Below are positions 49,106-61,973 of a stretch of DNA of 64,000 nt, in pieces. The stretch is from contig JAGCJH010000017.1 in the NCBI GenBank assembly GCA_017648105.1, positions 788 to 64,787 on the forward strand. The letters run 5' to 3'. The DNA comes from Tidjanibacter sp. (GTDB lineage Bacteria > Bacteroidota > Bacteroidia > Bacteroidales > Rikenellaceae). Both the position numbers and the translations under genes were made by a program. How positions within the stretch are numbered: the first letter of the stretch is position 1; the number at the start of each line of letters is the position of its first letter. Below the pieces are notes generated by a model that worked only from the letters and a program-made list of their open reading frames with translations, did no database searches and was not told the origin of the DNA.

Positions 49106-51421
49106 ATGAAGTATAGACTATCGGAGATTGCGGACATCGTGTCGAGGGGTAGGCTCCTCGGGGCAGATGTGGAGGTGGGGAGTGTTATGACCGACTCACG
49201 CCACAGCTTTGCTGTGGAGAGTGCGCCCCTCTTTGTGGCTATTGCGGGCGAAAATCACGATGGTCACAACTTCATTGGCGACTTGTATCGCCGAGGCGTT
49301 AGGGCGTTCTTGGTGGAGAGGGAGGTTGCCGTCGAGGAGTTCCCCGAGGCGGGCTTTGTGGTAGTTGGGCGCTCGTTGCGTGCTTTGCAGGAGTTGGCAG
49401 CAGACTATCGCTCGAAGTTCGGGGGTGTGATGGTTGCTGTCACAGGCTCGACGGGTAAGACCACCGTCAAGGAGTGGATAGTGCAGTCGGCACCTGCGGG
49501 TGTGAGGGTCTTCCGTTCGCCGAGGAGTTTCAACTCCCAACTGGGCGTGGCGCTCTCACTCCTGATGATGGAGGGCAACGAGGATATTGCAGTCATTGAG
49601 GCGGGAATCTCTCGCCCCGATGAGATGGCACGCCTCGAAAGTATCATCCGCCCCGATATCGGTATCTTCACATCCTTGGAGTCGCAGCACGATGAAAACT
49701 TCATAGATAGGGCACATAAGGCAGCTGAGAAGGCGGTGCTTTTTGCTCGTACTCGCAAGGTTATCTACAACGCCTCCAATCGCTACATCCGTGAGGCGCT
49801 TGCGGCTGTGAGGTGCAAAGTGGGCGTGGAGAGTATGAGGGCTATGGTGGGCGAGTTGTATGCACAGCTCGGCTATGATAGGGCAGAGGTGGAGAGTAGG
49901 CTCTCGGCAAGTGAGCCCGTAAGGTTGCACCTCTCGCTTGCGGAGGGTCTTGGTGGTTCGCTGATATTGAGCGACACGCACAACTCGGACATCAACTCCA
50001 TAGCTATTGCTCTCGACTCACTCGCAGAGGTGGCGGGCGGTCGCAGGAGAGTAGTGGTGCTCTCGGATATGCTTTATAGCACCCTGCCAGACGAGGAAAT
50101 ATACTCCCGTGTGGCGCAGGCTACCGTAGCTGCTGGGGTCGATATGGTCATTGGCATTGGTCGCTACATCGCTGCACACAAACACTTCTTTGCCGATACG
50201 GACGAATTCTACTCCTCGGCAGACGAATTTCTGAAAATACTCACACAGGACCGCTTTGAGGGGGCAGCAGTGCTCATCAAGGGAGGTCCAATGTCGGGCT
50301 TCGATAGGATTGTTCACACACTCTCTCGCAGGAGCCATACGACGGTCTTGGAGGTAAATCTTACGGCTATGGTTGCCAACCTTAACCGCTATCGCTCACG
50401 CTTGCCCAAGGGTACGAGGATGATGACGATGGTTAAGGCGTCGGGCTATGGTCACGGCGACTATGAGATAGCCGCAGCATTGCAACACGAGGGTGTGGAC
50501 TATCTCGCAGTGGCGTTTGCTGACGAGGGCGTGCTCCTCAGGCAGAAGGGTATCACGATGCCCATCGTGGTGCTCAATGCCGATGCGGATAGCTTCTCGC
50601 TGATGTGCTCCTACCGCTTGGAGCCCGAGATATACAATTTCTCCTCGCTCGAAGCCTTTGCAATGGCAGTGGAGGGTGCGGGCGAGAGCGACTACCCCAT
50701 ACATCTGAAAATTGATAGCGGTATGCACCGTCTCGGTTTCCAGAGAGAGGATGTGGGGAGGCTTACAGAGCGACTTGCCCAGATGAAGGGTCTTCTTACT
50801 GTGAGGAGTATCTTCTCCCACTTCGCAACAGCCGATATGGCAGAGGAGGTGGGGTTTGTGAAGACTCAACAGAGTACATTCGAGGAGATTTCGGGAGCTA
50901 TCATTCAGTCGCTCCCCTACAAACCCCTCAGACACATCAACAATACGGCAGGTATGGAGCACTATGCCTCCTCGACCTACGATATGTGCCGTCTTGGTAT
51001 TGGACTCTATGGTGTGGGCGAGGGTGTGACTCCCATTTCGAGGCTCACAACACGCATCGTGCAGGTCAAAACACTCACAGAGGGCGAGAGCGTAGGCTAC
51101 GGTAGGGCTGGGAAGATTGAGTGCCCCACGAGGGTGGCAACAATCCCCATAGGCTATGCCGACGGCTTGGATCGTAGGCTCGGATGTGGCGTGTGGTCTG
51201 TGGGCGTGGCGGGCGTGATGTGCCCCATCATCGGCAGAGTATGTATGGATAGCTGTATGGTCGATGTGAGCGCCGTGGAGTGCAAGGAGGGCGATGAGGT
51301 TGTAATCTTCGGTGGCGAGGGTAGGGCGCTGTGCGATATGGCAGCGGTGCTCGACACAATCCCCTATGAAGTGATGACCTCCATTTCCGCACGAGTGAAA
51401 CGCATATATGTAAAGGAGTAA
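49106..51421 (+). CDS. alr: bifunctional MurF-like ligase/alanine racemase fusion
   Basis: TDSR, VTGSTGKT and SFNSQLG (MurF); MVKASGYGHG, HLKIDSGMHRLG, GYADG and GRVCMD (Alr). Confidence 0.93.
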   Translation: MKYRLSEIADIVSRGRLLGADVEVGSVMTDSRHSFAVESAPLFVAIAGENHDGHNFIGDLYRRGVRAFLVEREVAVEEFPEAGFVVVGRSLRALQELAADYRSKFGGVMVAVTGSTGKTTVKEWIVQSAPAGVRVFRSPRSFNSQLGVALSLLMMEGNEDIAVIEAGISRPDEMARLESIIRPDIGIFTSLESQHDENFIDRAHKAAEKAVLFARTRKVIYNASNRYIREALAAVRCKVGVESMRAMVGELYAQLGYDRAEVESRLSASEPVRLHLSLAEGLGGSLILSDTHNSDINSIAIALDSLAEVAGGRRRVVVLSDMLYSTLPDEEIYSRVAQATVAAGVDMVIGIGRYIAAHKHFFADTDEFYSSADEFLKILTQDRFEGAAVLIKGGPMSGFDRIVHTLSRRSHTTVLEVNLTAMVANLNRYRSRLPKGTRMMTMVKASGYGHGDYEIAAALQHEGVDYLAVAFADEGVLLRQKGITMPIVVLNADADSFSLMCSYRLEPEIYNFSSLEAFAMAVEGAGESDYPIHLKIDSGMHRLGFQREDVGRLTERLAQMKGLLTVRSIFSHFATADMAEEVGFVKTQQSTFEEISGAIIQSLPYKPLRHINNTAGMEHYASSTYDMCRLGIGLYGVGEGVTPISRLTTRIVQVKTLTEGESVGYGRAGKIECPTRVATIPIGYADGLDRRLGCGVWSVGVAGVMCPIIGRVCMDSCMVDVSAVECKEGDEVVIFGGEGRALCDMAAVLDTIPYEVMTSISARVKRIYVKE

Positions 51422-52465: not shown

Positions 52466-52873
52466 ATGAATTATCAGGCACTATTTGAGGCGCTCGGCTC
52501 GCACGCCACAGCCATCGGTTATCATCCTACGGTGGCGGACAGACTCCATCAAACGCTCCGTCACGAAGGCTTCCCCTTAGCCATTATATCCTATCCACAG
52601 CAGACCGCATCGGATGGTGTTCGGGAGGTTGAAAAGGAGTTTTCTGTGGAACTTAAACTATTGAGAGAAAACGAAGTAACACCTTCGGCAAGGGCAGAGG
52701 CTTTGTCGTTACTTATGGAGGATGCCGAGAGGCTTGCCGCAGCGCTTGCGGAGGAGAGTGCAGTGCGTGAGGTTGCTGTTATGGAACTCTCCCCTGTGGA
52801 GCGTATGCTCACGATTGTTGGCGAAGTTGCCGTTGCCTTGAAACTAAGAATCAAAACGGTAGAGTGTTGTTAA
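52466..52873 (+). CDS. hypothetical protein, putative tail terminator/completion protein
   Basis: 135 aa; FPLAIISYP strand then strand/helix pattern; size and context fit a tail terminator (inference). Confidence 0.45.
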   Translation: MNYQALFEALGSHATAIGYHPTVADRLHQTLRHEGFPLAIISYPQQTASDGVREVEKEFSVELKLLRENEVTPSARAEALSLLMEDAERLAAALAEESAVREVAVMELSPVERMLTIVGEVAVALKLRIKTVECC

Positions 52874-52936
52874 GTGGCTGAACTCACGCCTCCCCTACAC
52901 TCCCTCATCATTACTCATTACAAACTAATAACTAAT

Positions 52937-53923
52937 ATGGTACTTACTTCTACCCCTGCCGATTACTCCTCGGCATACGACCCCAATAATGAATTTCGCT
53001 TCGATGGCGTAGATCCCTCGGTGCCCACCGAGATTGTCTTCTATGATGGTTCGGGTGCTGTGGTGGGTGCTCGTCGCTACGCCCACCGTGAGAGCATCAC
53101 GACCTCGCCCCAGAACTTCCTCCAAAGGATGCTCAACCCCAAGCCCTACAACACCTCGGGATGTAAGATTGTCCTCGCCAACGACCGCCAAGCAATCCTC
53201 TCGGTGGGCTATAATGACGGGGCAAATCGCACCTCAAATATCCACTTCACGGCTGCGCAGGGCAGGGTTCCCAATCCTACGGCTTTCGGTGGCTATGAGC
53301 AGTGGCGCACAATCTCGGCAGGCGAGTGCGATGAGATAGCATTCAGGCTCCCTAATGGATGTACGCTTTCTGTGGAGTGCCGACTGAATGGCGAACAGAA
53401 GGGTGTAGTGCTCTGCTCCTCGGCAATCACAACCTCGGGTATCTATGTCGTGACCATTGATGCCGACCAGATTCTTGCCCTCAGTCCTGATGTGGAGCAG
53501 TTCGACTTTGTGGTCTTGATGTCGGGCGGTGTGGTTGGTGTTATTCACTTTGAAGTTGCCCCTGCGCCTACGGAGGGTGTGAGGCTTGCGTGGCTCAACG
53601 ATGAGGGCTACATCTCCTACCACACTTTCCGAGGTGCCCCTACCGAGCAACTCCACACTTTGCGCTCGGAGTGCGAAACGCCCAATGGTACGCAGACTCT
53701 CGGTGTGGAGAGCTGGCGTGAGAGTTCGCTTCGCAGTGGCTACCTGTCGACTGAGGGGGTTGAACGCCTTTCGGGTATTGCCACCTCGCCCCGAGTGTGG
53801 AGGGTTACGAAGGAACACTCCGAGCCCCAAATCCTTCTCTCTCACACCATCTCGACGCTCGGCAGTGGTGCCCGACAAGTGGAACTCACCATCCGTCCTG
53901 CTGGTAAGGTTTTTCGCTATTAA
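52937..53923 (+). CDS. phage structural protein, putative distal-tail/tail-tip component
   Basis: Beta-rich; LAWLNDEGYISYHTF and SGYLS..IATSPRVW resemble Bacteroidota phage proteins that precede the hub gene. Confidence 0.55.
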   Translation: MVLTSTPADYSSAYDPNNEFRFDGVDPSVPTEIVFYDGSGAVVGARRYAHRESITTSPQNFLQRMLNPKPYNTSGCKIVLANDRQAILSVGYNDGANRTSNIHFTAAQGRVPNPTAFGGYEQWRTISAGECDEIAFRLPNGCTLSVECRLNGEQKGVVLCSSAITTSGIYVVTIDADQILALSPDVEQFDFVVLMSGGVVGVIHFEVAPAPTEGVRLAWLNDEGYISYHTFRGAPTEQLHTLRSECETPNGTQTLGVESWRESSLRSGYLSTEGVERLSGIATSPRVWRVTKEHSEPQILLSHTISTLGSGARQVELTIRPAGKVFRY

Positions 53924-53952
53924 CCCTTCGCCCTTTGCACTTTGCTGTTAAT

Positions 53953-53988
53953 AATTCTCAATTCTCAATTCTCAATTCCCAATTCCCA
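53953..53988. repeat. host heptamer repeat (family B) inside the phage-like cluster
   Basis: aattctc aattctc aattctc aattccc aattccc directly before the ATG. Confidence 0.9.
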
Positions 53989-56340
53989 ATGGTAAGGCTT
54001 TATATAGACAATGAGGTTGCAGACCTCGACCCCAACTCGTCGCTCTCTATTTCGCTCTCCATTGCCTCACTCACATCCACATCGTGGGGCAGGGCGAGCT
54101 ACTCCAAGAGCATTACAATTCCTGCGACACCCCACAACCGTCGCCTGATGGGGGACTGCGAACAGCCCCTCGCATCCCAGATGTTCAACCACAAGGAGCA
54201 CACTGCACGAGTGGAGGTGCGTGGTAGTGTCATCATCGAGGGCACAATCTACCTCACAGCCTCACGACTCGGAAGGGAGGGCTACTATCGCTTCAATATT
54301 ATCGGCAATGCCCGCCAGTGGGTCAAGGGGGCAGAGGGAGCAATCTCCTCGCTGGTGGATGATTGGGGTGGCGAATACTCCGAGGAGATGATTGCCGAGA
54401 GTCTTGCGGAGGAGGGTACGCCTCTGGTGAGATTTCTGCCCGTAAGGCGAGAGGGCGGTGAGGGGTTGAAAAACTATGCAGGAAGAATTCTGCCCGAGAA
54501 CTACCATCCATTCCTCCACATCGGCACTCTCGTAGAGCGCATCTTCGCCAAGGCAGGCTATGCTGTGGAGTCCGAGTTCTTCGCCTCCGATTTTTTCCAG
54601 TCGCTCTATATGAGTGGTAGGTGGAGGGAGATGGATTGGAGTGGCTGGGCAGAGAGTATGGACTTCCGAGCCGAGAAAAGGGAGGATTCGGAGGAGGCAA
54701 ATGGTAATATCTTCGGTATGGTCTATGCCGACCCCCTCGCCAATTATAGTACGGTTGGTAACCTTGTGGATCTGCCCGCAGGGGAGGAGGGGACTTTCAA
54801 TGGTGGTGCCTTCACGCAGGAGTATTCGGGGCGTGTGAAATTCACACCCACGAGGGAGATGATGGTTGCCTTTGAGTATTTTCTCCGCTGGCGCACGGAG
54901 TATCGCATCCAATCTCGTGATAAGCTCAAAGGATTCTTCAAGATTCGCCCCTACTATGGCGATGAGTTCTCCGCATCAATGGCAAATACCTTCAAAGACC
55001 GCAGGGAGGAGGGGCTGCGCCCCAATTTTCAGTACACCTTCATCATCTTTGAGCCTATCGAGGGGGCAACCTACAAACTGATGGCAACCGAGAGGGATGA
55101 GAATGGTATTGTCAGCGGTCGAGAGCTCCTTTCGACAACCTCACGCTCGACGAAGTTCTACCACACCGAGGCAGACACCATCTATGAACTCTATGTGGAG
55201 ATGCACCACAATGGCTTCATCTCAATTCCTGCGTCGGACTGGGCGGTCTATGATGGCAATGTGAATGAGTATGGCAAAAAGGAGGTGTCGATATCGTTCC
55301 GTAGTGAGCCACGAGTTTACTCCCCGTCGGTGTCCAAGTATTTCGACCTCTTCTACTTCGGTGGTGCGGAGGAGAATATGAAGATGCAGCTCCTTGCGGG
55401 CACTTCGGTGCGCCCCGTGCTCTATCCCCACCCGATGTTGGAGCAAGAGATTGGTTGGAAGGATGTTGCGGACTACTCCTTCTCGGGGCTCGACCTGCTG
55501 GGGGCTCTGAGAGAACTCTTCGACCTGCAAATCTACACCGACCCCCTCGAACGCAAAGTCTGCATCGAGCCTCGCAGGGAGTTCTGTGACCCCGAGGTGG
55601 TTATTGACCTTTCGGAGCGAATGGATGCCTCACAGCCCATCCTCGTGGAGGAGCTCGGTGCCGACCACCCCAAGCGCCTTACACTCCGCTACCACTTGGG
55701 CGATAAGGCTTCGGAGGAGTCGAGTGCGGCAGAGGGTGTGCCCTATGGCGAGTGGAGCGCCGAGGTGGATAACATCTTCGCCTCGGAGGGAGTTAATCTC
55801 ATCTCCAACCGCCTCTTTGCCCCCTCGTGTTCCACGCTTGGTGCTGTGCGTGATGCCCCCTCAGCAAGCCTCATAGTGGCGAGCGATAGCGACGAGAGTA
55901 GCCCACGATGTGTGGCAAGGTGCAATTTCCTGCCTAAGATTGTGTCGTATAGAGGTATGCGCACTCTACCCGAGGGCGAGGTGTGGAACTACCCAACGGA
56001 GAAGGCTACCGAGTACCCTCTTGTGACCTTTTTCGATGATGGGTCGGTAGGTGGCGAGAAGATGTCGCTACTCTTTGAGGATAGAGAGGCTGTGGAGGGT
56101 TTGCACCGCTGGTGGGACGGCAGAGTGGAGGCTCTCAACCACTCACGACGCATCACACTCTACATCTCTCTCCACCCCGAGGAGATCGAACAGTTTGTCG
56201 TTCCCAACTCTACAAAGCACGATTTCAGGGCGCACTACCTGCTCACGATTGCGGGCGAAAAGGTGCTCTGTCGAATGGAAGAGATTGTGGACTACAACCC
56301 CGCCGCCCCATCGACAAAAGTGGTCTTCGTAACTGTGTAA
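53989..56340 (+). CDS. large phage tail/baseplate-hub-like protein
   Basis: N-terminal RLYIDNEVADL...SYSKSITIPATPHN and C-terminal EEIVDYNP...TKV resemble Bacteroidota phage tail proteins. Confidence 0.62.
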   Translation: MVRLYIDNEVADLDPNSSLSISLSIASLTSTSWGRASYSKSITIPATPHNRRLMGDCEQPLASQMFNHKEHTARVEVRGSVIIEGTIYLTASRLGREGYYRFNIIGNARQWVKGAEGAISSLVDDWGGEYSEEMIAESLAEEGTPLVRFLPVRREGGEGLKNYAGRILPENYHPFLHIGTLVERIFAKAGYAVESEFFASDFFQSLYMSGRWREMDWSGWAESMDFRAEKREDSEEANGNIFGMVYADPLANYSTVGNLVDLPAGEEGTFNGGAFTQEYSGRVKFTPTREMMVAFEYFLRWRTEYRIQSRDKLKGFFKIRPYYGDEFSASMANTFKDRREEGLRPNFQYTFIIFEPIEGATYKLMATERDENGIVSGRELLSTTSRSTKFYHTEADTIYELYVEMHHNGFISIPASDWAVYDGNVNEYGKKEVSISFRSEPRVYSPSVSKYFDLFYFGGAEENMKMQLLAGTSVRPVLYPHPMLEQEIGWKDVADYSFSGLDLLGALRELFDLQIYTDPLERKVCIEPRREFCDPEVVIDLSERMDASQPILVEELGADHPKRLTLRYHLGDKASEESSAAEGVPYGEWSAEVDNIFASEGVNLISNRLFAPSCSTLGAVRDAPSASLIVASDSDESSPRCVARCNFLPKIVSYRGMRTLPEGEVWNYPTEKATEYPLVTFFDDGSVGGEKMSLLFEDREAVEGLHRWWDGRVEALNHSRRITLYISLHPEEIEQFVVPNSTKHDFRAHYLLTIAGEKVLCRMEEIVDYNPAAPSTKVVFVTV

Positions 56341-56366
56341 AACTTAATTCTCAACTTGAAGAAGGT

Positions 56367-56540
56367 ATGGCAAACTATGATACAACAACAGGTGTGGTGA
56401 GCATCACTTTGGAGGAGCTTGCCTCAGCGATTGCCTCGGCGCTTAAAGAGGTGAAAATTTATGTTTTGGAGAGTGAAATTTCTGCTGCGCAGAGTGCCGT
56501 GAGGGCGGTGGTGGAGCAGGCAAATATTGTGGAACAATGA
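56367..56540 (+). CDS. 57-aa protein resembling the C-terminus of a Bacteroidota phage tape measure protein
   Basis: KIYVLESEISAAQSAVRAVVEQA; own ATG; stop overlaps the next start (ATGA). Confidence 0.5.
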   Translation: MANYDTTTGVVSITLEELASAIASALKEVKIYVLESEISAAQSAVRAVVEQANIVEQ

Positions 56541-56803
56541 GCCTCGGGAGTCGTCAGCAGGAAGAGCTAATGGAACTCCTAATGTGGGAGTGCCGAGGCT
56601 TCTCGGCAGGGCGTACCATAGCCCACCTTATGGAACGAGGACTCATCTCGGAGCCCTCCTCACGAGCCTACATCGCACGCCATAGAGTGGAGGCAAAGAT
56701 GCGACAAGGGCTCTCGAAGGTTGCAGCAATGGAGTCCGTAGCCGAGGATATTGGGAGCTCGTTTGCTTCCGTGAGAAACTACATCTACCACCAGTACAAA
56801 TAA
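56537..56803 (+). CDS. small putative helix-turn-helix protein
   Basis: C-terminal KVAAMESVAEDIGSSFASVRNYIY HTH pattern. Confidence 0.6.
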   Translation: MSLGSRQQEELMELLMWECRGFSAGRTIAHLMERGLISEPSSRAYIARHRVEAKMRQGLSKVAAMESVAEDIGSSFASVRNYIYHQYK

Positions 56804-56843
56804 AGTAACCTAAGTGACCTAAACAAGAACAAAACAAAAGATT

Positions 56844-57788
56844 ATGAACACAACGAAAAACAAAATCGCCTCCTCGCTGCGCATTGCAACCATCGATATT
56901 GATGGTATTCTCGGCACTCCCGAGCAAGAGCAGTTCGGTACGCTCGATGCTCGTGTGGCGACCTACGAACGCTTCGAGGAGGCTCTCGCCGAGATTCGTG
57001 AGGAGGGCGAAATCGACCGCCTCGTGCTCAACATCCGTTCGACGGGCGGCTGTCTGGCAGATGCACTCCTGATCTACGATACCGTGCGCTCGTTGGGTGT
57101 GGAGGTGGTTACTCGCTGCTATGGCTATGTTGCCTCGGCAGCGACCATCATCGCACAAGCGGCATCGAAGGGTTGCAGGGAGATTTCCGCCAATGCCCTC
57201 TACCTTATTCACTGCTGTGAGAGCGCCGTGGAGGGTAACACCCACTCCCTCTCTGCCACCAAAGAGCTCCTCGACAAGAGCGACGAGCGACTTGCCGAAA
57301 TCTACGCCCTCGCCTCGGGTCGTACCCCTGAGGAGTATCGTGAGCTGATGAATCGCAATAGCGGTAAGGGTGTGTGGCTCTCGCCTGAGGAGTGTGTGAA
57401 GGCAGGTCTTGCCGACAGTATCATCGCCTCCTCGCCCATCACAGATTCGGCTCGTGGGCAGATATTCGCCTTGGGACTCACTCCACTCCCTGCAAAGAGC
57501 CTCGGCGAGCGCATCCGAGAGGCGTGGGGGCAGTTGCTCTCTCAGGTGGGGCTTGGTGGAGAGGAAACCTCCGCTATTGCCCAAGCCCCAGTGGATGTGT
57601 CGGCATCCAAAGCAGAGGATAGGGTGGCAGGCGAACCCCCAGTGCCCCCTTCGAGGCTCCACACGGCACGCCCCACGCTTACAAAGGAGTGCGACGACCC
57701 CGCACCCAATGGCACCCACTCGCTCACAGCCAATCAGGCAGCCTATGAGAGCGATGTTGCGGAGCTTAAACGAGTGATGAGTAAATAG
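56844..57788 (+). CDS. ClpP-type prohead maturation protease with C-terminal scaffold-like extension
   Basis: LNIRSTGG, VASAAT (Ser), LIH (His) and WLSPEECVKAGLAD motifs; directly upstream of the capsid-like gene. Confidence 0.88.
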   Translation: MNTTKNKIASSLRIATIDIDGILGTPEQEQFGTLDARVATYERFEEALAEIREEGEIDRLVLNIRSTGGCLADALLIYDTVRSLGVEVVTRCYGYVASAATIIAQAASKGCREISANALYLIHCCESAVEGNTHSLSATKELLDKSDERLAEIYALASGRTPEEYRELMNRNSGKGVWLSPEECVKAGLADSIIASSPITDSARGQIFALGLTPLPAKSLGERIREAWGQLLSQVGLGGEETSAIAQAPVDVSASKAEDRVAGEPPVPPSRLHTARPTLTKECDDPAPNGTHSLTANQAAYESDVAELKRVMSK

Positions 57789-57836
57789 TAAATATTTCTC
57801 TATTCAAACAAATTAACCTTAAAACACAAAAACATT

Positions 57837-59066
57837 ATGGGAAAAATTGAAAACATTAAGACCTACAATGGTCAGGTATTGGACAACATCTTCTTCCGCC
57901 CTATGCTTACAGGTAAGAATGCCGAAGAGTTGGGCATCAAAGTGATGTACAATGTGCCCGTGCCCACAACCCTCCATTTCTGGAAGCGCAATGGTGATGT
58001 GCTCAAAAAGTTCACTGAGGCAGGTTGGAATGGCGGTGGCGCTGCCGACAAATACCAGAAGACCATCAACCTCGACAAGGTGAAGGCGGAGATGGCATAC
58101 TCGGCAGAGGACTACTTCTCGACCGTCTATGAGCTCATCACTGGTCGTGCGGATGTCAATCTCGATGACCTGTCGGGCACCGAGCTCGAAGATGCCGAGA
58201 CCTCACTCTTCCGTGCGTCGATTGCCGAGGGTATCCGTGCAACGATGTGGTATGGCGACAAGGAGCGCACCACAACTCTCAATACCTTCGACGGCTTTGT
58301 GAAACATCTGTGTAGGGATGTCGAGGATGGTGAGATTGTACAGCTCGGCTACATCCCCAAGAAGAACTCCTATGAGTGGGCAGAGGCACTCTTGAAGAAG
58401 ATGTGGGATGACTCCACAGATGAGCTCCACGCCTTGCGCTCGGAGGGCAACCTTGTCTATTTCGTTAGTAGCGATGTCTATAATGCCTACGAGGAGTCGC
58501 TCGACAATGTAGCAATCGAGGCTGCATATTTGGCAAAGCAGACTGGTCGTGAGGGTCTGTTCTACCGTGGTATTCCTGTGGTGGATGTGCAGATGAACGG
58601 CTACAAAGACGCAGCCTCCAACTTGCCCCAGTCTTTTGCAATCCTCACAGATCGTCGCAACCTCGCATTGGCGGTCAATACCAACGACTTCCCCGGTACC
58701 GAGGTGCGTATGTGGTATAACCCAGATATGATGGAGAATCGCCAGAGGGCAATCTTTATGGCGGGTTGCGACTACCTCTTGCCCGAGCTTGTGACCTTTG
58801 CAGTCGGTATGCCCTTGAAGAGTTATGAGGTCTGCGTCGATGACGATGTCCTCACTGTCTTCGCAAAAGTGGAAGGCGACGCAATGGGTTGGGTGGAGGA
58901 GATCCAGTTCTCAACCGAGGATGTGAATGGTGAGGTTGGACTCAACCGCACCGTGCTCGATGTTATTGATGGCTCCATCGAAAACACCTTCCGCATCACA
59001 ACCTGCTCCAAACACTGGTTTACCATCGTAACGGTGGATGGTTACACCCTTAATTTTGAGTCCTAA
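57837..59066 (+). CDS. putative major capsid protein (HK97-like)
   Basis: Follows the protease; strong A-rich translation initiation region; MWYGD..FDGF, YRGIPVV and ILTDRRNL motifs. Confidence 0.75.
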   Translation: MGKIENIKTYNGQVLDNIFFRPMLTGKNAEELGIKVMYNVPVPTTLHFWKRNGDVLKKFTEAGWNGGGAADKYQKTINLDKVKAEMAYSAEDYFSTVYELITGRADVNLDDLSGTELEDAETSLFRASIAEGIRATMWYGDKERTTTLNTFDGFVKHLCRDVEDGEIVQLGYIPKKNSYEWAEALLKKMWDDSTDELHALRSEGNLVYFVSSDVYNAYEESLDNVAIEAAYLAKQTGREGLFYRGIPVVDVQMNGYKDAASNLPQSFAILTDRRNLALAVNTNDFPGTEVRMWYNPDMMENRQRAIFMAGCDYLLPELVTFAVGMPLKSYEVCVDDDVLTVFAKVEGDAMGWVEEIQFSTEDVNGEVGLNRTVLDVIDGSIENTFRITTCSKHWFTIVTVDGYTLNFES

Positions 59067-59548
59067 TGGAACTCTCGCAGACTCTCTGTGGTAAGCACCT
59101 CGGAGGTATTGCTCGCCTCTATCTCTACGATGCTACGAAAATCCTCTCCGCCACCTACAACTCCCACTTGGGAGCCTACACCTCGGTGGCGGTGGAGGAG
59201 GGCGAGGAGCCTATGGAGGTAGTCTTTGCGGAGGGTAGCGCCTCGTGGAGCGAGAAGCGTCGGGGTGAAGATGGTGTGGAACACCGTGTGGCATTCTCGC
59301 TGCGGGGTGTGCGCCCCCAAGCGCTCACAACCCTCACAAGGCTCTCCGAGAGAGGCATTGTCGCCGAGGTGGAGAGTGAGGAGGGTGTGAAATGCTTGGT
59401 TGGCTACTCTCCCCAAGCACACGCCGACTATCCCCTAAGGCTAACCTCGGCAGAGATAGTTACGGGGTGTGAGCGTGGCGACAGACCCACAACCCACATA
59501 ACCCTCACTTCCACCGACGGGTGGTTTTCGCACGAGGTGGTAGGGTAG
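59066..59548 (+). CDS. putative tail tube (major tail) protein
   Basis: 160 aa; N-terminal C..LGGIARLYL pattern; beta-rich; coupled to the capsid stop (TAATG). Confidence 0.5.
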   Translation: MELSQTLCGKHLGGIARLYLYDATKILSATYNSHLGAYTSVAVEEGEEPMEVVFAEGSASWSEKRRGEDGVEHRVAFSLRGVRPQALTTLTRLSERGIVAEVESEEGVKCLVGYSPQAHADYPLRLTSAEIVTGCERGDRPTTHITLTSTDGWFSHEVVG

Positions 59549-59570
59549 TGGAAGAGTAATCACTTTTTTC

Positions 59571-59622
59571 GGGGGGAGGCGGTGGAGTTGCAACAAAACT
59601 CCTCTCTCCCCCTCTTTTTTTT
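59571..59622 (+). terminator. internal imperfect terminator between tube-like and portal genes
   Basis: GGGGGGAG..GGAGTT-loop-AACTCC..CTCCCCC followed by T8. Confidence 0.7.
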
Positions 59623-59647
59623 CAAACCCAAGAAACTTTCAAACGCA

Positions 59648-60892
59648 ATGAACAAAGACAAAAAATACTATACCCCCAAAATCTTCACTCCCCGTGCCTC
59701 CTCTGCACTCTCCTCGGGAGGTTTCCCCTTTGGTGTGGCGAGTGGTGTGAGTGGCGCAGGTGATGTGTGGCGCTGGGGTAGCGACAACCTCTTCCCCTAT
59801 GCTCTTTCGCTCCTTGCTCGTCGTTCGACAACCCACCGCAGAATCATCAACGACAAGGCGGACTACATCTCGGGTAAGGGTTTTAGTGTGGCGGAGGAGG
59901 CTGTGAGGACAAAGCAGTTTGTGCGTGAGGCAAACTCTTTTGGCGAGTCGCTCCGTGAGGTGCTCAACAAACTCGCCTTCGACAAGGCGCTCTTCGGAAA
60001 CGCCTTTGCGGAGATTGTGACCGATGCCCAAAACTCCTTCCTTGCAATCTTCCATCAGGACGCCTCACGATGCCGTCTGGCAAAGGATGGTTGCCATATC
60101 GTGCTCCACCACAACTGGGCGCAGTACAACCCCTCGGAGGGGCGTTCGCTCCCTCTCTTCCCACTCTTTGAGGAGGGCGAGGATGGCAATCTCCACGCCA
60201 TTATCCACTACAAAGACTACGAACCTATGTTCTCCCACTATGGTGTGCCCCCCTATATTGCTGGCTTGGATGTCTCAACCATCGCCTATAAGACCGACAC
60301 TTGGAACATCTCACGCCTTGACAACTCCTTCCAACTTTCGGGTGTGATGTTGCTCGATGGTGGCGTGGAGAGCGAAGCAGAGGCTGAGGAGTTGGTGCAG
60401 AGTGCCCAGCGCAAATTTGCGGGTAATCCAGGACAGGTGCTCTTCGTTGTGAAGGATTGCGAGGAGGGCGACTCCTCACGATTTATCCCCATCACAGCCT
60501 CCAATGAGGGCGACTGGCGAGAGTTGCACGATCAGGCAACTACCGACATCGTGATTGCCCACTCGTGGTTCCGTTCGCTCAGCGGTTTGGACTACTCTGG
60601 TGGCTTCTCCTCGGAGCGCATCCTCCACGAATGGGAGGTGGCTCTCAACACCGTAATTATTGGCGAGCAGGAGGAACTCCTCGAACCTATCCGCACCCTC
60701 ATTGCCAAGATTCTCGGCGAGGATGCCTCGACGCTTGCGGTTGTCAATCGTCCGCCCTCACGCTCCAAGCCCCTCTATATGCGTGTGTGGGAGGCGAGGA
60801 AGGCGGATGGTTTGGACTATAACCCAGACGACCCTGAGGAGCAACTCTTTGTTGCACAGGTAACTAAGTATGGACTCAAAAATGTTGATTGA
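59648..60892 (+). CDS. phage portal protein
   Basis: WGSDNLFP, STTHRRIINDKADYISGKG, DKALFGNAFAEI, HYGVPPY and NSFQLSG motifs. Confidence 0.85.
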   Translation: MNKDKKYYTPKIFTPRASSALSSGGFPFGVASGVSGAGDVWRWGSDNLFPYALSLLARRSTTHRRIINDKADYISGKGFSVAEEAVRTKQFVREANSFGESLREVLNKLAFDKALFGNAFAEIVTDAQNSFLAIFHQDASRCRLAKDGCHIVLHHNWAQYNPSEGRSLPLFPLFEEGEDGNLHAIIHYKDYEPMFSHYGVPPYIAGLDVSTIAYKTDTWNISRLDNSFQLSGVMLLDGGVESEAEAEELVQSAQRKFAGNPGQVLFVVKDCEEGDSSRFIPITASNEGDWRELHDQATTDIVIAHSWFRSLSGLDYSGGFSSERILHEWEVALNTVIIGEQEELLEPIRTLIAKILGEDASTLAVVNRPPSRSKPLYMRVWEARKADGLDYNPDDPEEQLFVAQVTKYGLKNVD

Positions 60893-60898
60893 TAGCCT

Positions 60899-61384
60899 AT
60901 GAAGACAATTCTCACACCTGCCGAGGTGCTCACAATAGCCTTTGGCACGACACATACGCTCCGAGAGGGCGATGTGCCTGAGCACACAATTCTCGCTACT
61001 CAGCGCAAATTCCTACGCCCTGTGTTGGGCGAGGCAATGTTTGAGGAGGTGGTGGGTGACAGCCCCTCTGCCGACATTCAGGAGCTGACGGCTCGCTACC
61101 TCAAAACCCCTCTGGCGCTCTATACCGCTTCGCTACTGCTGCCCACCATTGCAATGCAGGTGGGTGCTGCGGGTGTTGTGAGGGTTGCGGGCGAGAGCTT
61201 CCGTGCGGTGGATAATAGGGCGCTCTCACGCCTCAGCCGTCGCCTGCGCTCAGATGCCTCCGCACTGCTCGATAGTGCCACCGATTACCTCGCCTCCCAC
61301 CCCGATCGCTATCCACTCTATGACCCTAAGGAGAATATCCGTGAGCGCATACTGCTCAAAGGTGGCATTGTGGTGAGCGAGTAG
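60899..61384 (+). CDS. putative head-tail adaptor/connector
   Basis: Helical 161-aa protein after the portal; Q..FLRPVLGEAMFE and YL......YPLY motifs. Confidence 0.6.
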   Translation: MKTILTPAEVLTIAFGTTHTLREGDVPEHTILATQRKFLRPVLGEAMFEEVVGDSPSADIQELTARYLKTPLALYTASLLLPTIAMQVGAAGVVRVAGESFRAVDNRALSRLSRRLRSDASALLDSATDYLASHPDRYPLYDPKENIRERILLKGGIVVSE

Positions 61385-61466
61385 TGACGAACGAGTAATG
61401 TTTTTACTTAGGTCATTAAAGATTTTAGGAAACTAATTCTCAATTGACCAGACTCTGTCTGCTCTA

Positions 61467-61523
61467 AAATGCTCACGCTCGGCATAATGCGCAAGCGCCT
61501 TCTGCCCTCGCTTACTCGCATTT
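61467..61523. repeat. small structured intergenic element
   Basis: Nested stems AAATGC/GCATTT, GGCA/TGCC and GCGC-AA-GCGC. Confidence 0.4.
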
Positions 61524-61525
61524 GC

Positions 61526-61554
61526 CTCAATTCTCAATTCTCAATTCTCAATTT
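61526..61554. repeat. host heptamer repeat (family B) before the holin gene
   Basis: ctc aattctc aattctc aattctc aattt. Confidence 0.88.
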
Positions 61555-61556
61555 TA

Positions 61557-61973
61557 ATGAAGTATTTTTCCGGACTTATCGCTGGGGTTTTGTCGTTTTT
61601 TGCCCCAGTAGAGCCATTGCTCATTATGGCGGTGGCTTTCGTGGCGGTGGACTTCCTTACGGGAGTGCTCGCCGATAGACATAGGGCACACGCTGAGGGA
61701 GGAAAGTGGCGCTTCGAGAGCCGTAAGGCGTGGCGCACAATCTCGAAACTCTCCTTCGTGATGGCGGGCATACTGCTTGCGTGGATGCTCGATGCTCTGC
61801 TCCTGCCCCTTGTAAATCTTCGCCTTGCCAACCTCTTCACGGGCTTTGTGTGTGGCGTGGAGTTTTGGAGCTACCTCGAAAATGCTACGACCATCACTGG
61901 CGAGAGCCGCTTTGCGGATGTCGTCGAGGCGCTCAAAAAACGCCTCACACCACTCTTTGGGGGCGGGAAATAG
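61557..61973 (+). CDS. phage holin family protein (holin_4_1-like)
   Basis: Three hydrophobic segments; DFLTGV, S.K..RTISK and EFWSYLEN motifs. Confidence 0.85.
   Translation: MKYFSGLIAGVLSFFAPVEPLLIMAVAFVAVDFLTGVLADRHRAHAEGGKWRFESRKAWRTISKLSFVMAGILLAWMLDALLLPLVNLRLANLFTGFVCGVEFWSYLENATTITGESRFADVVEALKKRLTPLFGGGK

Follow-up and report, generated by a model that had tools for sequence, protein, structure and literature searches.

A free-standing homologue of the siphophage tape measure C-terminus in an apparently GTA-like operon of Rikenellaceae

A small gene of Tidjanibacter sp., here called g57, encodes 57 residues that are shown by sequence comparison to be homologous to the extreme C-terminal module of the tape measure proteins (TMPs) of Bacteroidota phages. 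We consider it probable (roughly 0.6) that g57 is the remainder of a siphophage TMP in a vertically inherited, GTA-like virion operon of the Rikenellaceae, whose particles seem, judging from the genes, to have lost the tail-length ruler and to have kept its end piece only. A free-standing tape measure end module with a graded series leading to its loss appears to be new. The GTA-like particle system itself, widespread in a major gut family, is apparently undescribed: a full-text search of the literature on GTAs and domesticated particles in Alistipes, Rikenellaceae and Bacteroidales, and on truncated tape measures, returned no description of this operon.

TMPs are the textbook example of a molecular ruler. 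The separate roles of their ends and of their middle part are poorly resolved, and the nucleation of tail assembly has been listed as an open question (PMC9022992). g57 is a naturally occurring protein under selection that comprises no more than the tip-proximal module, and sister genera hold graded longer forms or none. Thus, the family could serve as a comparative system for the role of the end module without a ruler and for the minimum length of a siphophage-type tail; the carriers include a named strain, Alistipes hominis New-7.

Organization of the virion operon

The window, that is, the whole stretch of DNA analysed, comprises 64,000 nucleotides of a source genome that is 83% complete. 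In it, g57 belongs to a 9.5-kb block of co-oriented genes (52466-61973), flanked by a murF-alr fusion and a methylase-like gene on one side and by rimP-nusA on the other. The genes of the block, in order, are:

52466..52873, + strand: g135, the first gene of the cluster, conserved in relatives
52934..53923, + strand: g349, putative tail-tip protein in the position of a distal tail protein, a role inferred from position only (ORF listed from GTG 52874)
53986..56340, + strand: g801, predicted central tail hub (gp27/Mu gp44/lambda gpJ/T5 pb3-like), from its AF2 fold
56367..56540, + strand: g57, free-standing homologue of the TMP C-terminal module (mini tape measure), from profile search, reciprocal HMM and selection
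56537..56803, + strand: g88, small helix-rich protein coupled to g57 by an ATGA overlap, with Tidjanibacter orthologues
56844..57788, + strand: ClpP-like prohead maturation protease (Pfam CLP_protease, 1.6e-26; PHROG head maturation protease, 5.6e-32)
57837..59066, + strand: major capsid protein (phrog_1623 virion structural protein, 2e-10)
59066..59548, + strand: g160, predicted tail tube protein (tube/Hcp fold), from its AF2 fold and family HMM
59582..60892, + strand: portal protein (Pfam Phage_portal, 5.1e-10; phrog_11226, 3.3e-21)
60899..61384, + strand: DUF6712 protein (Pfam DUF6712, 3.9e-15), likely head-tail adaptor by position only
61557..61973, + strand: holin (Pfam Phage_holin_4_1, 6.8e-12)

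All ORFs between 52466 and 61973 could be accounted for and a long tape measure was absent, as the original prediction had stated for the cluster. The murF-alr fusion beside the block (49106-51421) is a single ORF of 771 aa, in which Mur ligase (MurF-like) domains are joined to a complete alanine racemase.

The hub and tube assignments are based on structure models. The g801 ORF was listed from a TTG at 53935, and the conserved start is the Met at 53986. Its AF2 model (pLDDT 84.6, pTM 0.78) was matched by Foldseek to lambda gpJ (E 2.8e-6) and also to T5 pb3 and Mu gp44, and VIA Z scores of 11-13 over about 300 residues were obtained with the Milano hub, Mu gp44, the PVC/AFP spike, VgrG, 80alpha Tal and T4 gp27. 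An insert at residues about 217-485 is predicted to be a TNF/C1q-like jelly roll (VIA Z about 8, C1q/4-1BBL) and plausibly represents the receptor-binding part of the particle. VIA matches of this jelly roll included 4-1BBL, the C1q domain of Caprin-2 and the short-fibre binding domain of cyanophage A-1(L). The g160 model (pLDDT 88.5, pTM 0.83) gave VIA Z scores of 8-9.6 over residues 12-160 with lambda gpV and with the tube proteins of Mu, 80alpha, SPP1 and RcGTA; nearly all of the top 50 entries were phage-tail, tailocin, contractile-injection or Hcp structures. On the basis of these models, the operon would specify the tip of a siphophage-type tail together with a tube protein, and it lacks a ruler.

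g349 was syntenic in all relatives and had no match in Pfam, PHROG or PDB sequences, and ESM Atlas searches with g801 and g349 returned only phage and Bacteroidota clusters, without structures. g135, which had no family or PDB sequence match, is possibly a tail terminator or completion protein. g88, also without a family match, is possibly DNA-binding and could be a regulator or a small terminase-like DNA-binding protein. It carries a conserved C-terminal motif, S[FY]..[VI]R.Y.Y..YK, which also occurs in G011 (a Tidjanibacter genome lacking g57) and in the scaffold MT838736.1 described below; among Alistipes-labelled loci, tblastn detected g88 in L075 alone (31% identity). PDB profile searches with g57, g160, g135, g349 and g801 gave chance-level matches only.

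The g57 reading frame

Translation of the window at 56367-56540 gives an ATG, 57 codons and a TGA, with the product MANYDTTTGVVSITLEELASAIASALKEVKIYVLESEISAAQSAVRAVVEQANIVEQ. The peptide quoted in the original prediction is present in this product, but the real protein extends six residues further. The TGA overlaps the ATG of g88 as ATGA, and a stop-start overlap (ATGA, TGATG or TAATG) was found in 12 of 15 orthologous loci. In the ORF list g57 appears only as the tail of a 142-aa ORF that begins with GTG (56112-56540), as had been observed before; the additional N-terminal part of this ORF runs over the 3' end of the preceding gene and is unconserved in relatives. Open frames in relatives range from 59 to 127 aa, yet the ATG located 55-57 codons before the stop is conserved. 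Thus, both the separate ATG and the translational coupling to the next gene that were originally proposed are present and conserved.

Two kinds of fusion protein were considered and rejected. A frameshift fusion of the hub to g57 was rejected on the grounds that relatives differ in the length of the upstream open frame and share a fixed ATG. A g57-g88 fusion of the gpG/gpGT type was ruled out by the lack of a visible slippery site, by the variable spacing of the two genes (+25 and +31 nt in two loci) and by the near-absence of g88 from Alistipes-type loci in tblastn searches. No tail-assembly chaperone pair with a frameshift could be recognised by position and family search between 52466 and 56367; in Bacteroidota phages such as EMB1, other genes precede the TMP. 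Searches of g57 against Pfam, NCBIfam and PHROGs gave no match except phrog_11075 (unknown function, E 0.005), which was not used.

Homology to the C-termini of tape measure proteins

An HMM built from 17 g57 orthologues was searched against 1.84 billion (1.84e9) representative proteins and gave 146 matches at E<=1e-3. With the exception of P0188, P0117 and P0207, the matches end a few residues from the C-terminus of the protein; P0188 has 1331 aa and contains nine short repeated stretches. Most of the matched proteins were 41-130 aa long, about 25 were 140-275 aa and three were 326-371 aa, and 12 were 614-1018 aa, the last with moderate library-wide E values (3e-5 to 9e-4) and with a match that spans only about 28-45 residues. 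Eight of the 10 long proteins scanned matched PHROG families annotated as 'tail length tape measure protein'; the TMP PHROGs of Bacteroidota siphophages include PHROG 1538, 167, 1506 and 20660. The five long proteins inspected in full all had the classical architecture of a TMP. A coiled coil at the N-terminus is followed by hydrophobic Gly/Ala segments, by another, long coiled coil and by a further hydrophobic stretch, and a Ser/Thr-rich linker leads to the motif. The C-termini of the long proteins follow the pattern [KR]VYV[LV]ESDIT.AQ..V[KR]..V...[ST]F, to which KIYVLESEISAAQSAVRAVVEQ corresponds in g57.

The relationship also held in the reverse direction. An HMM was built from the C-terminal 45 residues of the 12 long proteins, and among the 1377 stop-to-stop frames of the window it picked the g57 frame alone (E 1.3e-11; next best, 0.27). 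The original prediction that the 57-aa motif resembles the C-terminus of Bacteroidota siphophage TMPs is therefore borne out by profile matches in both directions, including matches to TMP C-termini in the 12 long proteins. Over their other parts, the long proteins are related to the TMPs of roughly 100 phages in culture, with hosts in Bacteroides, Phocaeicola, Parabacteroides and Flavobacterium, and some of these records carry the annotation tape measure protein. P0215, P0216 and P0220 matched GenBank phages; P0219 and the TMP of the viral contig L043 had no match among GenBank phages, and nothing was found for P0219 among viral contigs. The tape measures of phages EMB1 and BV737P3 end in a similar but diverged helix-strand-helix (...QLASVVIDAV...PIVSVQDIDNGQNNVQVIQ), which the g57 profile did not detect.

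What g57 retains of a TMP is the C-terminal module of about 45 residues, with about 9-12 residues before it. The long helical or coiled-coil ruler of hundreds of residues is absent from its 57 aa, as are the hydrophobic Gly/Ala-rich segments that are present in the long homologues.

The same module could in principle belong to the head rather than to the tail. SaPI CpmB has a C-terminal capsid-binding helix in common with the 80alpha scaffold, and g57 could likewise be a scaffold-like tag for head assembly or for interaction with the protease. The genes for the prohead protease and the capsid protein come shortly after g57, a separate scaffold gene is missing from the cluster, and in L043 a 690-aa protein with the motif is directly followed by an XkdF-type protease. 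Nevertheless, the long proteins that end in the motif have TMP architecture, fall into TMP PHROGs and are related to annotated siphophage TMPs; a protein of 600-1000 aa that contains hydrophobic segments is no scaffold, and the immediate upstream neighbour in 36 loci is the hub gene. We thus regard a function of g57 in capsid assembly as improbable, with about one chance in ten, and retain its origin from a TMP as the preferred reading.

The tape measure slot and collinearity with phage EMB1

In 36 loci g57 is located directly 3' of the gp27-like hub gene, which is the slot of the TMP. The order g349, g801, g57, g88, protease, capsid and g160 in the window is collinear with that of Bacteroides phage EMB1 (ON721384.1), whose proteins compare as follows:

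339 aa: related to the g349 family (HMM 5.8e-5, hhalign 2.9e-4); upstream of the hub-like gene
534 aa: N-terminus aligns to the g801 family, weakly (hhalign 2.6e-3, HMM 0.06)
835 aa: tape measure, in the slot equivalent to g57
305 aa: no relation detected
314 aa: phrog_1623, the PHROG of the capsid protein in the window
173 aa: no relation detected
179 aa: related to the g160 family (HMM 6.8e-8); tube-like

The single similarities are weak, and the argument from collinearity rests on the common order, which suggests correspondence of the two blocks. Another EMB1 protein, of 203 aa and encoded after TerL, was considered as a relative of g160 and rejected, having no relation to the g160 profile. 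In L043 the order is TerS, TerL, a 213-aa protein, the 690-aa motif protein and the XkdF-type protease. This contig (IMGVR_UViG_3300031867_000276) represents a free phage, and its 690-aa tape measure ends in the motif. In the same phage (L043:9591-14485) a diversity-generating retroelement (an Avd-like protein and a reverse transcriptase) adjoins a tail-fibre gene and a 533-aa unknown protein.

Since the module is common to the TMPs of free phages of the phylum, one might also imagine that the host keeps g57 as a mimic of the TMP end, which would poison tail-tip assembly of infecting Bacteroidota siphophages and thereby act in superinfection defence. A small gene of variable length that is dispensable in some lineages would suit such a decoy. 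However, g57 occupies the exact TMP slot of a structural operon and is translationally coupled within it, and a structural role is simpler and accounts for all of those facts; we consider the decoy the most remote of the explanations weighed here. A structural part derived from a TMP is still our preferred reading of g57.

Conservation, selection and the length series

Orthologues of g57 were found in 19-20 of the 24 same-genus species, with one match per genome. When one genome per species was scanned, 36 loci carried an ORF with the g57-type motif, all of them in Rikenellaceae (Tidjanibacter, Alistipes including A. hominis New-7, and other members of the family), and wherever both flanks were present the ORF lay between the g801 homologue and the protease. 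Six positions (L26, Y32, E35, I38, A41 and V45) were invariant in the alignment of 17 orthologues, each from a different species. Over the 44-codon core, comparison with the nearest relative gave dN 0.063 vs dS 1.46, and the median dN/dS over 164 unsaturated pairs was 0.19, a dN/dS of about 0.04-0.2 in all. Because orthologues occupy one fixed slot and dN/dS is low, g57 is more than chance; judged from these alignments, it is a real gene under purifying selection and no chance ORF.

The content of the slot varies greatly within the Rikenellaceae, from proteins of 115-227 aa in Alistipes through 55-100 aa in Tidjanibacter to nothing in two Tidjanibacter lineages. A full-length tape measure occupies the slot in no relative. 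The Alistipes proteins fill the slot completely. They carry a short conserved motif at the N-terminus (for example, PYRIFWDD or YSIRV; Y[RS]I.[WF]-like) and the common module at the C-terminus, joined by a disordered linker that is rich in Ser/Thr/Pro/Glu and highly variable in length. Examples of this design with two anchors, which differs from a coiled-coil ruler, are L071:8482-9087, L074:8506-9126 and L079:4977-5657; A. hominis New-7 (NZ_JACOOK010000003.1) has a form of 202 aa. Within Tidjanibacter, the slot protein of one clade is about 57-100 aa long with a Gly/Ala/Glu-rich N-terminus, and in the core clade it is 55-57 aa, residues 10-57 of g57 aligning with the module and only ~9 residues preceding it. 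The expectation that orthologous clusters all carry a similarly short ORF thus holds for Tidjanibacter where the gene is present (55-100 aa), but not for the four of 24 species without g57 or for Alistipes. On the other hand, the short form is conserved and selected across the genus and is not a strain-specific deletion scar.

The gene is absent from G012, G015 and G018, in which 56-68 bp separate the hub gene and g88, and from G011, in which the hub gene overlaps the g88-like gene (g57-less loci, L034:7279-7344, L035, L036 and L037:7130-7133). All four species keep the hub, tube, capsid and portal. On the hub tree, G012, G015 and G018 group together as a single clade inside the 55-57 aa group, which argues for secondary loss there. 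Retention of tube and hub in the absence of g57 implies that g57 is not essential for the role of the particle in these four of 24 species.

Such clean absences with the remaining operon intact, together with the highly variable length across the family, are what one would expect if g57 were a mere vestige, the leftover end of a deleted TMP gene that is translated through coupling and has no role in the particle. In contrast, a vestige would hardly be under the strong purifying selection described above (dN 0.063 vs dS 1.46; median omega 0.19), with Y32, E35, I38, A41 and V45 invariant in 17 species and with ATG and length conserved in the core clade, nor would the module be expected to persist since the divergence of Alistipes and Tidjanibacter. 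We consider this explanation unlikely, if slightly less so than a function in capsid assembly, and a TMP remainder with a role in the particle is preferred.

The two-anchor forms of Alistipes and the losses in Tidjanibacter suggest a stepwise loss of the ruler. It is conceivable, although we put this forward tentatively and think it rather less probable than the alternative, that phage TMPs (614-1018 aa), the Alistipes forms (115-227 aa), the bare module (55-57 aa) and its absence make up a natural series along which tube, hub and capsid remained under selection throughout. If so, the family would hold a living record of a long-tailed particle becoming short-tailed and podovirus-like, and the TMP end module would have an independent function, that of an initiator or a plug, separable from length measurement.

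A possible role in tail assembly

In the mechanism that we propose, the ruler and the hydrophobic segments would be gone and the last ~45 residues would survive as a separate small protein, predicted to have a beta-strand (KIYVLES) between a short helix and a terminal one. In lambda the ruler amounts to 0.15 nm per residue, and at this value the ~10 residues ahead of the g57 module span <2 nm. In long-tailed phages, one end of the TMP is attached to the tip complex and tube subunits polymerise until the other end is reached (PMC9022992), and in RcGTA a trimer of the 216-aa TMP fills and blocks the five-ring tail channel and helps to retain DNA (PMC7296036). By analogy with the TMP C-termini of lambda, T5, 80alpha and RcGTA, g57 is probably trimeric and would sit inside the complex of hub and distal tail protein, with g801 as its presumed docking partner. 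Once docked, g57 might finish the tail initiator complex and close off the channel. Since hardly any ruler precedes the docking module, polymerisation of the tube would be capped after about one ring, which would leave a siphophage-derived particle with a very short, non-contractile tail; upon opening of the hub, g57 would be expelled first. We therefore infer, as originally proposed, a stub-tailed particle, an idea backed by the predicted tube-fold and hub proteins in the cluster.

Comparison with known systems

Like g57, the TMPs of Bacteroidota siphophages have the homologous C-terminal module (~28-45 residues) and an equivalent slot. They differ in that g57 lacks the coiled coil, the Gly/Ala segments and the AEGG-type region and is 10-18 times shorter, and in that g57 is encoded in a chromosomal, vertically inherited operon whereas the siphophage TMPs are encoded in phage genomes. 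A parallel may also be seen in g11 of RcGTA (Rcc01694, Rhodobacter capsulatus; PMC7296036), likewise a shortened TMP in a host-domesticated phage-like system. The RcGTA tail is short and non-contractile, as is proposed for the Rikenellaceae particle, and the g11 trimer closes its channel above the baseplate. g11 has 216 aa and a 113-residue ruler helix that spans five tube rings, whereas g57 is essentially rulerless, and no sequence relationship between the two was found. The Alistipes forms are near g11 in size, but a disordered linker replaces the helix.

The principle that removal of ruler residues gives a shorter tail while the protein ends are kept may be shared with lambda gpH, in which engineered in-frame deletions reportedly shorten the tail in proportion (Katsura and Hendrix). 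The gpH deletions were made in the laboratory and removed part of the ruler; in Rikenellaceae the whole ruler is gone, and in two lineages the end piece too. A further analogy may exist with the tail needle gp26 of P22 among podophages: both could be small trimeric channel plugs that are expelled at infection, g57 being far shorter than gp26. A common origin for TMPs and needles has been proposed by the authors of the RcGTA study (PMC7296036).

GTA-like context and terminase

The operon is vertically inherited, flanked by housekeeping genes and without replication or integration genes, and it also occurs in Alistipes and other Rikenellaceae. The capsid gene was present in 23 of 24 same-genus genomes, and the whole block was syntenic in the 15 loci fetched, next to rimP-nusA. 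Terminase_6N (PF03237) gave one match per genome in all five genomes searched, at a locus separate from the cluster; searches with the L043 TerL and with PF03354 found nothing in the genus. The terminase in the source genome (G000; contig C61, L085:7161-9194, outside the window) is the only large subunit of that genome and has 677 aa, comprising a Terminase_6N ATPase, a T7-type RNaseH-like nuclease and a C-terminal PF11860 N-acetylmuramidase. Such a terminase-lysin fusion would supply the endolysin that is missing beside the holin of the cluster. In another genome (G006) the terminase, of 488 aa, has no muramidase domain, and its gene is at a distance of about 5 kb from the cluster. The G000 terminase is flanked by host genes (PAP2, peptidase U32, methyltransferase and HD), and a tape measure was not found nearby. 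Supply of a TMP from elsewhere in the genome was rejected on the grounds that there is one g57 match per genome and that host genes alone surround the terminase.

Finally, a high-GC copy of the operon was encountered in MT838736.1 (L040), a 7414-bp 'Bacteriophage sp.' scaffold from human faeces in Mexico that was deposited as unverified. It has no g57 match and contains g349, the hub, a g88-like gene, the protease, capsid and tube genes and the start of the portal gene. Either DNA of the operon finds its way into virome samples, or a bacterial contig has been misfiled under this record.
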